A stretch of DNA of 64,000 nucleotides from Candidatus Hydrogenedentota bacterium (GCA_963745075.1 CAVUWV010000030.1:26309-90308), one strand, 5' to 3'; counted from the stretch's first letter, positions 30,761 to 36,284 are shown. Made by a program: numbers and translations. The notes: a model not told the origin generated them from the letters alone.

Positions 30761-33700
30761 TCACGCCTTTTTTTCGATCTGGGTGAAGTCTGCGGTCAGG
30801 GTAATGGCGTCGCGCACGTCGCGAACGAGGGCGTGGCGATTCTGACGGACGCGGTCGTTTTGGTCGTTCACGAGGACGGCTTCGAAGTACGCGGCGATGA
30901 TGGGTACCCACGTCAGGATCTCTTCGCAAGCCTTGTCAAACTCCTTCCTCTCGATGAAGGTGCGGACTTTGTCCGCGGAATCGGTGCGAATGAGATTGAG
31001 CGCTTTCTCGTTGTCGTCCAGGAGAGACTCGTCAACGGCGTCAGCGGGATCCTTGACGATGCGCTGCATGCGCTTGGTCTGTTCCGCGAGGTCCTGGAGT
31101 TGATGCTCTTCGAGTTTGCTGATGGCATCGAGGCAGCGGTGCAGTTGCACCGGACGTTTCCCGTGCACGGCGAGTGCGGCCGCGACCTGGTCGTAGACGT
31201 AGCCGTGATCGCGCAGCATGACGGCCATGCGGTCGCTGAAGAAGTCGAGGATGGTTTGCAGCGCCTTGTCCGGTGCGTGAACGATTTCGCCGTAGTTGGC
31301 CAGCGCCGCGCGCACGAACACTTCGAGGTCGATGTCGAGTTGATTCGCGTCGATGATGGAGAGTAAGGCGAGCGCGTTGCGGCGCAGTCCCATGGGATCG
31401 CTGGTGCCTTTGACCCGCTGGCCGATGCCGAAGTAGCCGGCAAGGGTGTCGAAGCGGTCGAGGATGCCGGCCACGGTGCCGAGATTGCATTGCGGCAAGG
31501 CGTCATCTGCGCGGCGGGGCAGACGATGCTCGAAAATGGCTCGGGCGATATCTTCGTCGATGCCCTCTTTGCGGGCGTAGAGCATGCCGACGACGCCCTC
31601 GAGGGAATCAAATTCAAAGACCATCTGCGTGGTGAGGTCGGCCTTCATCAGGGTGAGCACCTCCCCCATCTTCCGGTCGTCGACTTCGGGGAGGAACTGC
31701 TTGAGCGTGAAATAGAGATCGCGCAACCGCGTGACCTTATCCGCTACGGAGCCGAGTTTCTGATGGAACATGACGGTATTCAGCTTCTCGGCGAAGGCCT
31801 TTAATGGGGTCTGGGTGTCCGTATCCCAGAAGTAACGGGCGTCGCGGAGGCGCGCGTTCAACACGCGCTCGTTTCCCGCGCGGATGATGTCGCGGCCCTC
31901 TTTGCTGAACTGGCCGTTTGCGACGCAGATGAACTTGTGGCTGAGCGAACCGTCGGCGGCGCGCAGCGGGATGTAGCGTTGATGGACTTTCATGGGCGTG
32001 ATGATGATGTCCTCGGGAAGGACGAGGGCGTCTTCCGGGATCGCGCCGACGATGGGGTCCGGGTATTCGACGAGATCGGCAATTTCCTCGTAGAGGTCGT
32101 CGTCATCTTCGGCGACGAGTTTTTCCGATTTGGCTAATTCGTGGACGCGATTGACGAGCATCTTCTTGCGATCCGAGTGGTCGGCGAGGACGTAGTGTTT
32201 CTCGAGCGTGTCGAGATAGTCACCGGTGGAATCGATGGTGATGGGTCCGGCGGCCAGACGACGATGACCGTAGGTGACGCGGCCGGAGTTGATGACGCGT
32301 TCGGCGCCGGTGTCGCCTTCGTCGCGAAGCTTGACGGACGCGGGGACGACGGTCGATCCGTGCAAGGCGAGAAGCCAGCGGATGGGCCGGGAGAAGACGG
32401 TAGTCGTATTTTCCCAGCCCATGGTTTTTCCGAAATGAATGCCGGCCAAGACGTCCTCGACCACTTCGCCCAAGAGCTTTGCGAGGTGCTTACCTTTCTG
32501 GTGTACTTTGACGAAGCAATACTCCGATTTGCCGTCGCTGCGGAATTCGATGTCGTCGACGGTGGCCCCTTGTCCTTCCGCGAAGCGTTGTGCAGCCATG
32601 GACCAATCGCCCTTGTCGTTCTGGGCGGCTTGGCGTTTGGGACCGCGGACTTCCTTGGTTGCGTCTTGTTGACGCGCAGGGACGTCGTCAATCAGGAAGG
32701 CGATGCGGCGGGGCGCGACGTAGGTTCGGATTTCGCCGTGCGTGAGACCGCGGGCCTCAAGGGCTTTGGCGACGAGCGCCGGCGTTTGGGATTGGACGGT
32801 CTGCACGTCGCGGTGTGGCAGTTCTTCCACGCCGATCTCGACGAGCAGCGTATCTTTGTCTTTGTAAGTCGGACGGGTCGGGGCGTTCCTGTTCGATGGC
32901 TTCGTACGTGACCGGGCTCGGATGGCGCAACATCGGGAAAGCCCATCTCCTCGCGTTGGGCGAGGAACCCTTTCGCGCACTGTTCGGCGAGGGCCCGGCA
33001 TCGAAGCAGGAAGCGTCCGCGTTCGGACACCGAAAACGCGCCGCGCGCGTCGAGCAGGTTAAACAAGTGCGACAGCCGCAGGCAGTGGTCGTAAGCCGGG
33101 AGGATGAGGCCAAGTTCGAGAAGGCGCTGCCCCTCCCCTTCCCAGATGTCGAAGACCTGGAGCAGTTTCGACGTGTCCGCGACGTCAAAGTTGTACTTGC
33201 AGTACTCGACTTCCTGAGCGTGAAAGATGTCCCGGTAGGTGACACCGCCGGGTGACCATTGCAGATCGAAGATGTTCTCGACGCCTTGCAGGTACATGGC
33301 GATGCGTTCGATGCCGTAGGTGAGTTCGCAGGCGCGCACGTCGAGCTTGAGCCCGCCGCATTCCTGGAAGTAGGTGAATTGGAGCACTTCCATACCGTCG
33401 AGCCACGCTTCCCAACCGAGACCCCAGGCACCGAGGGACGGGCTTTGCCAGTTGTCCTCGACGAAACGGAAGTCGTGAAGTTTTAGATCGAGGCCAAGGG
33501 CTTCGAGGGATTCGAGGAACAGTTCCTGCACGTTTGGCGGCGATGGTTTCAGGATGACCTGGTACTGGTAGTAGTGCTGGAGGCGGTTCGGGTTTTCGCC
33601 GTACCGGCCGTCGGTCGGGCGTGTGCTCGGCTCCGTGTACGCGACCCACCAGGGTTCCGGCCCCAACACGCGCAGGAACGTGGCCGGGTTGGACGTGCCC

Positions 33701-33792
33701 GCGCCCACTTCCGTGTGATACGGCGTCCACAAGAGACAGCCGCGGCTGCTCCAGAAGTTGTTGAGGGTCTGCAACACATCCTGCACGTACAT
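30761..33792 (-). CDS. glyS: Glycine--tRNA ligase, probably a single alpha-beta fusion (GlyQS) interrupted by two apparent +1 indels near 32870-32940
   Basis: Alpha part: [40 protein letters not shown]. Beta part: [40 protein letters not shown]. No separate start or RBS for beta. Confidence 0.95.
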
Positions 33793-33960
33793 GATCGATT
33801 CGGTCCTTCTAACGTGGTCGTATCCCGGGAAAGTCCGCCGTGCCACCCGGCCCCGGCGCCGGCGAAGAAAGGGTTAATGCAAAGCGAGAATTGTACTTGC
33901 GAACGGGTGCGGGAGTCAAAGAATGGGCGGATGAATGGGTGGACGGAAAAGTGGGAAAGA

Positions 33961-33987
33961 CCACAGCCGGGGGCGGCTGTGCCACAC
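33961..33987 (-). repeat. REP copy 1
   Basis: CCACAGCCGGGGGCGGCTGTGCCACAC, the reverse complement of GTGTGG-CACAGCCG-CCCC-CGGCTGTG-G. Confidence 0.92.
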
Positions 33988-34088
33988 GTCTACCTCGTAA
34001 GACCATGTTCTTGTCCACCCGTTGCACGCTCAGTCTATATTCAGAGACTTCGACGGTTAGTTGTGAAAACCGAGTGTTCACCAAGCGA

Positions 34089-34114
34089 GTGTGGCACAGC
34101 CGCCCCCGGCTGTG
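34089..34114 (+). repeat. REP copy 2
   Basis: GTGTGGCACAGCCGCCCCCGGCTGTG. Confidence 0.92.
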
Positions 34115-34203
34115 ATTTTTCCGCACTTCGTGAACATGCAGTCCCGGAGTAGCTCGCAGAACCCTCCTTAATCCCATGTGAGAAGTCACGTCAGAATCCC
34201 GAC

Positions 34204-34770
34204 ATGGAACATGAGAAGCCCGACAAACCGGACGTCCATGGCAAACGCCGAAAGGCGAAGCCGAGCAAAGAGTTCTACCACCGAAACCTGCCACATATTC
34301 AGAAGTCAGGCCGTCCAATCTTTGTCACTTTCCGTACCTACCGGCGCATCATCTTGCCAGAGACTGTACGTACGCAAGTTCTACAGCATTGTTTGTACGA
34401 CAACGGACGCCGAATCCACGTCTATTGTGCGGTCGTCATGCCAGATCACGTCCATATGCTCTTCACCCTGCTCGAAGATGATGACGGAACGGCGTTCAGC
34501 TTGGAGGAGATTACAAACGGGATTAAGGGCGCTTCCGCTCACACGGTCAACCGTCAATTGAGGCGAAAAGGATGCCTATGGCAGGACGAATCCTTTGACC
34601 ATGTTCTTCGATCCGACCAGAGCGTCGAGGCGAAATCACAGTATATTTGCGATAACCCGATTCGAAAGGGTCTGGTTTCCGAGCAGGACGACTATCCCTG
34701 GCTTTGGCGAGAATGGGTTGAAGGCGAAGCGGATACTCAAAACGACTCGGCGCAAGAAGAACGAGACTAA
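34204..34770 (+). CDS. REP-associated tyrosine transposase (RAYT, IS200/IS605 TnpA-like Y1 family)
   Basis: RNLPH, IFVTFRT, HUH motif VMPDHVHML, LWQDESFDHVLR, catalytic Tyr in QYICDNPIRKGLV. Confidence 0.92.
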   Translation: MEHEKPDKPDVHGKRRKAKPSKEFYHRNLPHIQKSGRPIFVTFRTYRRIILPETVRTQVLQHCLYDNGRRIHVYCAVVMPDHVHMLFTLLEDDDGTAFSLEEITNGIKGASAHTVNRQLRRKGCLWQDESFDHVLRSDQSVEAKSQYICDNPIRKGLVSEQDDYPWLWREWVEGEADTQNDSAQEERD

Positions 34771-34773
34771 AGA

Positions 34774-34800
34774 CCACAGCCGGGGGCGGCTGTGCCACAC
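34774..34800 (-). repeat. REP copy 3
   Basis: CCACAGCCGGGGGCGGCTGTGCCACAC, starting 3 nt after the RAYT stop. Confidence 0.92.
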
Positions 34801-34901
34801 TCGCTTGGAAAGTACTTGATTCTTGGGTCCAACCGTCGACATCACTGAGATCGACAGCGGCTTCGCCGGGTTGGGAGGGGAATTTGTCTTGTGCGGTAGA
34901 C

Positions 34902-34928
34902 GTGTGGCACAGCCGGCCCCGGCTGTGG
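34902..34928 (+). repeat. REP copy 4
   Basis: GTGTGGCACAGCCGGCCCCGGCTGTGG (one loop substitution). Confidence 0.92.
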
Positions 34929-35063
34929 TCTTCTTACTTGAGCTAAGTCCTCGCCATATGGCATTCAAGCCCAAAATTCCCCTATAGTGCTTCAGAGCTT
35001 GGAGAATGCGGAATGGAGGCGCACCTTGATGCGTCTCACATAAGCCAACGGGGAGTTTTTGCG

Positions 35064-36284
35064 ATGAAGTTCTATCGTGTACTGACATTGGGCGTGCTGT
35101 GTCTGGCTTTGGCGTTCGTGTGCCTTTCTGCGAAAGCAGAGCCTAAGCACGTTTACCTGACCTATTCGGATGCGCCGGAAACGACGATTGACATCAACGT
35201 GATGCTGGACGAGAAGGAAGGCGATACGGTGGATGTGTATTACGACACGAAGCCGCATGGCGGGGAACTCGATGCGTACGCGCAGCATGTGACCGCCGAG
35301 TACGTTCAGACGGTGATGCAAATCAGCGACGACCGCGTCGTGTATGTGGCGACGCTGACGGGGCTGGAACCGGGAACCGAGTATTACTTCGTTGCGGGCG
35401 AGACGAAAGAATATGGCATGTCGAAGGAGCGCAAGTTCCGGACCTTGCCCGGAGGCGACAAGCCGTTCCGCTTTGTGACCGGCGGCGACATGGGCGTCGA
35501 CGGCTTTGCGATCGCGCTGCTCGAGATCGTGAGCGAGACGGAACCGGACTTTGGCGTCGTTGGTGGCGATATACCGTACGCGAACGGGCGGCTGGCTGAC
35601 CGCTTCTTGTGGGACAAGTGGCTGGACAACTGGGACCGGCTGACGACGACGGAGGACGACCGGATGATTCCGATCGTGGCCGCCATCGGAAACCATGAGA
35701 CGAACGACTATGATTCGCCAAACCAGGACTTGCGGGCGCCGTGGTACATGAGCATTTTCGGTCGTCAGGGCGAGAACGTGTATTACTCGCGGCAGTTCGG
35801 CGATAACATGGTGTTGTTCGCGCTGGATTCGGGTCATCTGGTGAGCCATGAGGCACAAGCGCCCTGGCTCGACAAGGAGATGGCAAAGTACCAGGACGTA
35901 AGGTACAAGTTCGCGGTGTACCACGTGCCGCTGTATCCCGCTCACCGCCCCTATGAGGGCGGCGGTTCGGTTGCCGGTCGCGAGTATTGGCTGCCCATCT
36001 TCGACAAGTACGGGCTGACCGTGGGGATGGAGAATCACGATCACGTGTTCAAACGCACGAAGCCATTGAAGGGAAACAAGGTTGTTGAGCAGGGTACGGT
36101 GTTTATCGGCGACGGCTGTTTCGGCCGCGAGCCGCGCGAGGTGGATGCCGAGTTACGCTGGTACAACGTGAAGCAGTTGTCGAAGGCGCATTTCTGGGTG
36201 GTCGACGTGGCCGATTCGGGGCTGAAGCTGAAGGCAATCGATGCCGAGGGGATTGAGATTGACGCGTTCGAGTTGCCGGGGTAA
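35064..36284 (+). CDS. Secreted purple-acid-phosphatase-like metallophosphoesterase with N-terminal FN3-like domain
   Basis: Signal peptide; LTGLEPGTEYYF; GGDMG, GGDIPYA, GNHE, VYHVPLYP, HDHVFKRT. Confidence 0.9.
   Translation: MKFYRVLTLGVLCLALAFVCLSAKAEPKHVYLTYSDAPETTIDINVMLDEKEGDTVDVYYDTKPHGGELDAYAQHVTAEYVQTVMQISDDRVVYVATLTGLEPGTEYYFVAGETKEYGMSKERKFRTLPGGDKPFRFVTGGDMGVDGFAIALLEIVSETEPDFGVVGGDIPYANGRLADRFLWDKWLDNWDRLTTTEDDRMIPIVAAIGNHETNDYDSPNQDLRAPWYMSIFGRQGENVYYSRQFGDNMVLFALDSGHLVSHEAQAPWLDKEMAKYQDVRYKFAVYHVPLYPAHRPYEGGGSVAGREYWLPIFDKYGLTVGMENHDHVFKRTKPLKGNKVVEQGTVFIGDGCFGREPREVDAELRWYNVKQLSKAHFWVVDVADSGLKLKAIDAEGIEIDAFELPG

Follow-up and report, generated by a model that had tools for sequence, protein, structure and literature searches.

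A predicted REP-associated tyrosine transposase and its probable cognate REP doublets in a genome of the candidate phylum Hydrogenedentota

Introduction

Work on systems that combine a REP-associated tyrosine transposase (RAYT, or TnpA_REP) with repetitive extragenic palindromic (REP) sequences and inverted REP doublets (REPINs) has been confined almost entirely to Pseudomonas, Enterobacteria, Neisseria and Stenotrophomonas. The REPIN-RAYT systems of Pseudomonas fluorescens were reportedly described by Bertels and Rainey in 2011. Here we describe a locus of this kind in a stretch of 64,000 nt (the window, C30:26309-90308) of the 6.8-Mb draft genome of a Candidatus Hydrogenedentota bacterium (GCA_963745075.1, here G000; 36 contigs, 89.7% complete), whose nearest relatives among public genomes are metagenome-assembled 'Candidatus Hydrogenedentota' genomes. 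An open reading frame (ORF) for a protein of 188 amino acids is enclosed there by four hairpins, and we regard it as very probable that this ORF is a RAYT and that the hairpins are its cognate REPs, arranged as two REPINs that serve as the long terminal inverted repeats of a 'REPtron'. Systems of this kind are well known; this REP family and this host phylum are undescribed, and the locus offers a clean example of a RAYT-REPIN system in this candidate phylum.

The RayT/TnpA_REP protein of Escherichia coli, with its REPs and bacterial interspersed mosaic elements (REP-BIME; structure 4ER8; subclass 2.2 of Quentin, group 2 of Bertels), shares with the Hydrogenedentota locus a Y1 HUH fold, a single-copy gene with inverted REP flanks, a 5' GT[AG]G tag at the hairpin foot, a W-Q...[ED]-H...R segment and extragenic REP doublets. 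However, the two proteins are 25% identical, with DHVH, WQ and YICDNP motifs here and DHLH, WE and YIHYNP motifs in E. coli, and the REP has a perfect 8-bp stem, a 4-nt loop and a GTGG tag here, whereas that of E. coli has a long bulged stem. About 40 REP copies are present here against several hundred in E. coli, and the gene locus is not conserved among congeners. With the REPIN-RAYT systems of P. fluorescens (group 3, subclass 2.5) the locus shares inverted doublets folding into long hairpins, the pairing of each REP family with a single RAYT, several families per genome, and an apparent collapse of the REPs when the RAYT is absent. It differs in that the whole REPIN is conserved in P. fluorescens, whereas here the spacers of about 100 nt are nearly randomised and the REPs exact, and in its lower copy number and different host phylum.

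Judged by published motif signatures only, the RAYT appears to lie closest to the small subclass 2.7 of Quentin (2018) and the GTGG-enriched Planctomycetes 'arc a-c' (PMC6006769), a resemblance that covers the [ND]HVH, WQ and YI..NP motifs, an aspartate at the position of E. coli E100, a distance of about 65 amino acids from HuH to tyrosine, the lack of a C-terminal extension domain and canonical 5' GT[AG]G REPs. The third residue of the tyrosine motif, by contrast, is C here (YIC[DENQ]NP). Subclass 2.7 is not among the Bertels groups, and canonical GT[AG]G REPs are reported at its flanks (PMC6006769). Only in groups 2 and 3 did Bertels et al. find flanking 16-mers to be abundant (PMC5581495). 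The preliminary description of the locus had RAYT-REPIN systems characterised mainly in Gammaproteobacteria, which proved too narrow, as GTAG/GTGG REPs with RAYTs are already catalogued in Planctomycetes, Verrucomicrobia, Cyanobacteria and Chloroflexi (PMC3733652, PMC6006769). The TnpA transposases of IS200/IS605 insertion sequences (IS608, ISDra2) share the HUH/Y1 core and the recognition of hairpins on single-stranded DNA (ssDNA). They are dimers from multi-copy elements with same-strand left-end and right-end hairpins, a Y-x4-Q motif and often a tnpB gene, and none of these features applies here.

Results

A predicted RAYT gene between two inverted REPINs

The 188-amino acid protein passed the NCBIfam model NF047646 (REP_Tyr_transpos) with 93.3 bits against a cut-off of 80 and failed the IS200 equivalog NF033573, reaching 24.1 bits against a cut-off of 55; Pfam Y1_Tnp also matched. 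Its top sequence match in the Protein Data Bank was E. coli TnpA_REP (4ER8, E = 2.5e-8), and the same structure was the top fold match of an AlphaFold (AF2) model built on 40 orthologs (pLDDT 85.4; TM 0.53/0.60, rmsd 3.4 Å, 137 columns), followed by the TnpAs of IS200, ISDra2 and IS608. The HUH motif is H82-V83-H84 and the predicted catalytic tyrosine is Y147, within YICDNP (Y147-I-C-D-N151-P152). Residues W126, Q127, D132, H133 and R136 align with W94, Q95, E100, H101 and R104, through which E. coli RayT contacts the GTAG tag (PMC6006769). P80, H82, W126, Q127, H133, R136, Y147, N151 and P152 are invariant in an alignment that includes E. coli RayT, the motif residues are kept across the 40 orthologs, and throughout the clade both the ORF and the catalytic residues are intact. 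A tblastn search of G000 returned a single 100% match, the next best being at most 31% identical. Together, family models and predicted fold place the protein in the RAYT class and not with the IS200/IS605 TnpAs, and the ORF is thus predicted to encode a RAYT.

The REP 24-mer GTGGCACAGCCGCCCCCGGCTGTG has 4 copies in the window, where 100 shuffles gave an expectation of 0, and on folding each copy formed an 8-bp stem and a 4-nt loop with GTGG right at the 5' foot of the hairpin. Two mutually inverted REPINs of about 163 bp each enclose the ORF (Table 1). The preliminary description, which had proposed an HUH/Y1 transposase between two inverted pairs of GTGG-tagged palindromes, was therefore right about the four REP copies, their tag and the Y1/HUH ORF. 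The perfect inverted match of 34 bp that it had given for copies 2 and 3 can be read directly at 34081-34114 and 34775-34808, and the inverted match between copies 1 and 4 was measured as a repeat of 47 nt between the outer REP arms (33957-34003 and 34886-34932), 91% complementary. Between the inner REPIN arms the inverted repeat extends to 80 nt at 78%, and the spacers of REPINs A and B are identical at 56 of 101 positions without gaps. Folded as ssDNA, REPIN A forms one long hairpin in which the two REPs are paired (-48.1 kcal/mol, z = -8.3). The arrangement REP2(+)-RAYT-REP3(-) is the canonical REP(+)-RAYT-REP(-) layout of other phyla, and the RAYT stop codon (TAA, 34768-34770) borders on REPIN B or shares its first bases. 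An Rfam scan of 33700-35200 (E <= 1) gave no match.

Table 1. Features of the REPIN-RAYT-REPIN cassette, in window coordinates
Feature	Coordinates	Strand	Remarks
Whole cassette, REPIN-RAYT-REPIN (putative 'REPtron')	33957..34932	+	976 bp
REPIN A: REP1(-), 101-nt spacer, REP2(+)	33957..34119		GTGG tags inward
REP1	33962..33985	-	exact; GTGG tag, 8-bp stem CACAGCCG/CGGCTGTG, CCCC loop; hairpin fold
REP2	34091..34114	+	exact; RAYT-proximal, upstream side
Predicted RAYT / TnpA_REP gene	34204..34770	+	188 aa, Y1/HUH protein
REPIN B: REP3(-), 101-nt spacer, REP4(+)	34770..34932		inverted copy of REPIN A over its whole length
REP3	34775..34798	-	exact; RAYT-proximal, downstream side
REP4	34904..34927	+	1 mismatch, in the loop: GCCC for CCCC

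As previously described, the cassette lies immediately upstream of glyQS: glyQ (minus strand, start 33846) is divergent from it, with about 110 bp between the glyQ start and the cassette. The neighbour on the other side is a gene for a secreted metallophosphoesterase-like protein, starting at about 35064. At 32692-33001 the glyQ frame continues for about 85 low-complexity codons and overlaps an open 5' extension of the glyS frame over about 310 nt. An assembly indel within a fused glyQS gene could account for this, as could a genuine overlap.

REPs across the genome

In G000 the REP is dispersed, mostly in inverted doublets, with 20 exact copies, 41 at up to 3 mismatches and 43 at up to 4; reversed-pattern controls gave 0. 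The 41 copies are spread over 13 contigs, and the conserved unit is about 31 nt long (GTGTGG-stem-loop-stem-GTCTT). Thirteen doublets account for 26 of the 43 REPs, with the polarity '- then +' and the tags inward, and their spacers of 97-105 nt give elements of 145-153 bp; one spacer reaches 225 nt through an internal tandem repeat. The REPs outside doublets occur singly, and a 229-bp tandem array contains four of them. Two sites on contig C1 show local tandem expansion. Within one REPIN at C1:114298-114570, about five repeats are present of a 32-bp unit that combines half a REP stem with the tag and flanking sequence (GGCTGTGCCACACGTCCAACTCCACCGACCGT), and at C1:317098-318013 a 229-bp unit, consisting of the right REP of a REPIN and adjacent sequence, occurs four times at a site that is orthologous to a plain REPIN doublet in the congener G005.

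A stop-to-stop version of the test for extragenic position was confounded by 5' extensions of ORFs, and the position of each REP in the frame spanning it was used instead. Because the REPs are confined to such 5' extensions or to the last 1-3 codons of long open frames (two of them overlap the stop codons of genes of about 900 codons), they are essentially extragenic. A REP read in frame gives VAQPPPAV and thereby creates spurious ORFs and ORF extensions, which annotators should mask; those in the window seed spurious ORFs of the type MAQPPPAVVF.... Many orthologous RAYT ORFs (L009, L018, L028, L038, L040 and others) seem to be N-terminally extended through the upstream REP, because the REP reads in frame as V-A-Q-P-P-P-A-V with GTG as a possible start.

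Across 42 distinct REP variants from G000 and its relatives, 99.1% of the stem cells are paired. Compensatory double changes were found in 7 of the 8 stem pairs, and the covariation score was 0.475; shuffles scored 0.096 and slid registers no more than 0.081. In 12 of the 13 doublets the two arms match in their loop or stem variant (CCCT or CTCC in the loop, CAGGCG/CGCCTG in the stem), which would be the expected product of selection or repair acting on the long REPIN hairpin; the lone exception is REPIN B, where the loop change is present in REP4 only. The REPs are exact while the spacers, among which subfamilies exist, are nearly randomised, and the REP ends therefore appear to be actively maintained.

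RAYT and REPs in congeners and in the rest of the phylum

Two congeners, G001 and G002, carry a RAYT ortholog 66-67% identical to that of G000 in the same four-REP layout, with 132 and 217 REPs, respectively, at up to 3 mismatches (181 and 291 with a degenerate pattern). Their RAYT had been expected in synteny at the glyQS locus and sits elsewhere. In three other congeners, G003, G004 and G005, no RAYT ortholog was found, and they contain 0 REPs at up to 3 mismatches and 2-4 relics of the variant GTGGCACAGGTGCCCTCACCTGTG. At glyQ these three are 83-84% identical to G000 and thus closer to it than G001 and G002 (79-81%). The simplest history is that the RAYT was lost in the lineage of G003-G005 and that the REP population then decayed. 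Such a loss followed by REP decay is reported for REPIN-RAYT systems (bioRxiv 10.1101/2021.07.10.451892).

Two relic REPs of the congeners without RAYT lie at sites orthologous to REP sites of G000, and at the glyQS locus, where these congeners lack the cassette, G004 has a decayed single REPIN in the spacer between glyQ and the downstream gene, that is, at the site of the G000 cassette and with a common left junction. Since REP1/REP3 and REP2/REP4 are direct repeats, the RAYT could be deleted by recombination: an exchange within either pair would delete the gene and leave one REPIN, and the G004 relic may have arisen in this way. The genus thus amounts to a natural experiment, in which three species have the gene and 40-290 REPs and three have no gene and relics only, and this pattern supports a dependence of REPIN populations on their RAYT.

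Among 135 genomes of the phylum, an ortholog (E <= 1e-30) was present in 4 of the 9 that have 9 or more REPs and in 2 of the remaining 126 (Fisher p = 1.3e-4), so that the association between REP and RAYT is real but imperfect. G012 has an ortholog and 19 REPs. In G030 (L121, L122) the polarity of the doublets is reversed, so that the tags point outward, and their spacers measure about 106 nt or more; the distant RAYT-like genes of that genome are not flanked by this REP. G039, a single-contig genome of the same order, contains a sister REP in about 50 copies, its loop being 3 nt long (GTGGCACAGCCG-TC[CT]-CGGCTGTG), and several RAYT-like genes about 45% identical to the RAYT of G000.

The same REP in other phyla

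Orthologs with 48-69% identity were found in Planctomycetota, Acidobacteriota, Thermodesulfobacteriota and 'delta' lineages, WOR-3/Stahlbacteria and Dehalococcoidia. The REPs at their flanks belong to the same family, with GT[AG]G, a covarying outer stem and an invariant GCCG-CCC[CT]-CGGC core. The identical 24-mer occurs in Hydrogenedentota, Planctomycetota, Acidobacteriota and Chloroflexota, while the proteins are only 50-60% identical. One 'Deltaproteobacteria' ortholog (L018:2929-3510) reads HVP for HVH in the HUH motif with its REP flanks intact, and is perhaps an inactive copy. The complete genome of Planctomycetales bacterium ZRK34, a cultivable organism in which the system could be tested, has 146 REP copies, and its doublets are of the opposite polarity, with tags outward and 16-nt spacers. 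The architecture thus differs between lineages while the REP is the same; therefore, the conserved recognition unit would be the tag and hairpin, and the doublet architecture appears lineage-specific.

Neither PMC6006769 nor PMC3733652 lists the REP core CAGCCGCCC in its supplementary tables, and a full-text literature search returned no paper with this core and none on REPs in Hydrogenedentes. In the preliminary description neither REP family nor host had been recognised as described; the host phylum is indeed new to the searchable literature, whereas the REP family is not private to this host, being common to orthologs in several phyla.

Discussion

By homology with E. coli TnpA_REP, a monomeric HUH/Y1 enzyme would bind the 8-bp REP hairpin on ssDNA, read the 5' GTGG tag through its W-Q...D-H...R segment, and cut and rejoin the ssDNA beside the hairpin via a 5'-phosphotyrosine link to Y147. 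REP and REPIN units would be mobilised in trans, and the outcome would be the approximately 40 extragenic REPs of the genome, mostly in doublets of 145-153 bp. That the enzyme is catalytic and still active, where it cleaves and which strand it uses are likewise inferred. The RAYT probably spreads the hairpin-repeat element round the genome.

Several observations weigh against the RAYT-REPIN explanation. The RAYT locus is not conserved among the congeners, in contrast to Pseudomonas and E. coli, where RAYTs are inherited vertically. In G000 the REPIN spacers are nearly randomised, with a median identity of 59% against 54% for shuffles and 81% for the best pair, and their comparison revealed no recently copied REPINs and no sign of recent REPIN transposition. 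A detectable ortholog was lacking in G030 (71 REPs), G074, G107, G116 and G081, which have 9-71 REPs each and are fragmented metagenome-assembled genomes (MAGs), in which a repeat-flanked gene may have been missed in assembly or the REPs may persist without it. Finally, a single gene copy is provisional in a draft genome that is 89.7% complete.

The lack of a conserved locus is what would be expected if the whole REPIN-RAYT-REPIN were an autonomous IS-like element with REPIN terminal inverted repeats of about 163 bp, mobile within genomes and between lineages, of which the dispersed REPINs would be deletion derivatives (miniature inverted-repeat transposable elements, MITEs) and not the cargo of a domesticated, immobile gene. 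The same four-REP layout is indeed found in G000, G001 and G002 yet at three different loci, and G000 has no REP at the cassette locus of G002. The RAYTs of these three genomes are about 67% identical pairwise as proteins, against 79-84% at the DNA level for neighbouring genes; one Planctomycetota MAG contains two cassettes that are 90% identical only across the REP cluster-RAYT-REP cluster; and the family is found in many phyla with a near-identical REP. We nevertheless consider this explanation unlikely. There is one cassette copy per genome, in G000 as in its congeners, no target-site duplication and no clean empty site could be defined on both flanks, and the REPIN relic of G004 at the same site is consistent with a long-established resident locus. 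The RAYT tree groups the sequences strongly by phylum (11 label changes; 23.5 with shuffled labels), which argues against frequent transfer, and in the literature REPtrons do not transpose as a unit (PMC6006769). A related idea, which we offer as a tentative one with a modest chance of being correct, is that REP hairpin and RAYT form an ancient module that has stayed nearly unchanged across phyla and that in this genus the cassette is still self-mobilising and undomesticated, with the REPINs as its MITEs.

The remaining explanations take the enzyme or the hairpins for something else. If the hairpins were host regulatory elements, such as bidirectional terminators or mRNA stabilisers kept by host selection, the link to the RAYT would be historical and the enzyme would no longer act. 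The terminator-like score of REP hairpins followed by a T-rich tail, the position of REPs at gene ends and over two stop codons, their perfect conservation between randomised spacers and the several MAGs with REPs and no detectable RAYT all fit such a role, which would in any case be compatible with RAYT-driven spread. As an alternative to that spread it is quite improbable: REPs are nearly gone in the RAYT-less G003-G005, conservation extends to the GTGG tag and the 5' GT, for which a terminator has no use, and the RAYT ORF and its catalytic residues have remained intact across the clade. An ordinary IS200/IS605-type IS, whose TnpA would use subterminal hairpins and whose decayed ends would be the other hairpins in the genome, is scarcely credible, and we rejected it on score, copy number and hairpin orientation. 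The Pfam Y1_Tnp match and the IS200, ISDra2 and IS608 TnpA structures as next-best folds speak for it. Against these stand the IS200 equivalog score (24 bits, cut-off 55), the Y-x3-NP signature of class 2 (TnpA_REP) in place of the Y-x4-Q of the class 1-like motif (PMC6006769), the inverted rather than same-strand orientation of the flanking hairpins, the single-copy gene facing about 41 hairpins, and the absence of tnpB. Nor did we find the combination that the preliminary description had named as contrary to its proposal, namely REPs absent elsewhere and a protein that groups with IS200/IS605 TnpA, since the REPs are dispersed and the protein is of the RAYT class; its interpretation of the locus is thus supported.

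Other transposase-linked repeats in the genome

A k-mer census of G000 found other RAYT-like genes, each with its own hairpin family, as in Pseudomonas, where the rule is 'one RAYT, one REP family'. A second RAYT-like gene at C10:85587-86534 (NF047646, 89.6 bits) has doublets of a GTAG REP, ATGTAGCGCAGGCGTCCCCGCCTGCA, on both sides; 14-mers of this REP occur up to 69 times, and a REP-like piece lies inside the gene itself (85886-85903). Further RAYT-like genes come in pairs (C33:56206-56613, C36:32905-33312, C24:16655-16960 and C20:221976-222278), each pair with its own hairpin family, GGAGTGCGGCCGCTTGCGGCTGC (about 30 copies) or CACTGGGAGCGCCAGGCTCCAGCCTGGCG (about 46 copies); the copy on C33 has an internal TAA. 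A Y1-transposase element of about 850 bp is present in 5-9 copies (C9:1641-2498, C20:238-1117, C24:379416-380263 and on C29) and has long terminal inverted repeats, GGGAAATTCAGGGACAGACTACGAATTAAA. In its behaviour it resembles an IS or a TIRYT rather than the single-copy RAYTs. The commonest 14-mers of the genome (about 170-200 copies) belong to a repeat, ...CCCCCTTCAAAGGGGGATCAAGGGGGATGTTC..., that is unlinked to any RAYT looked at.

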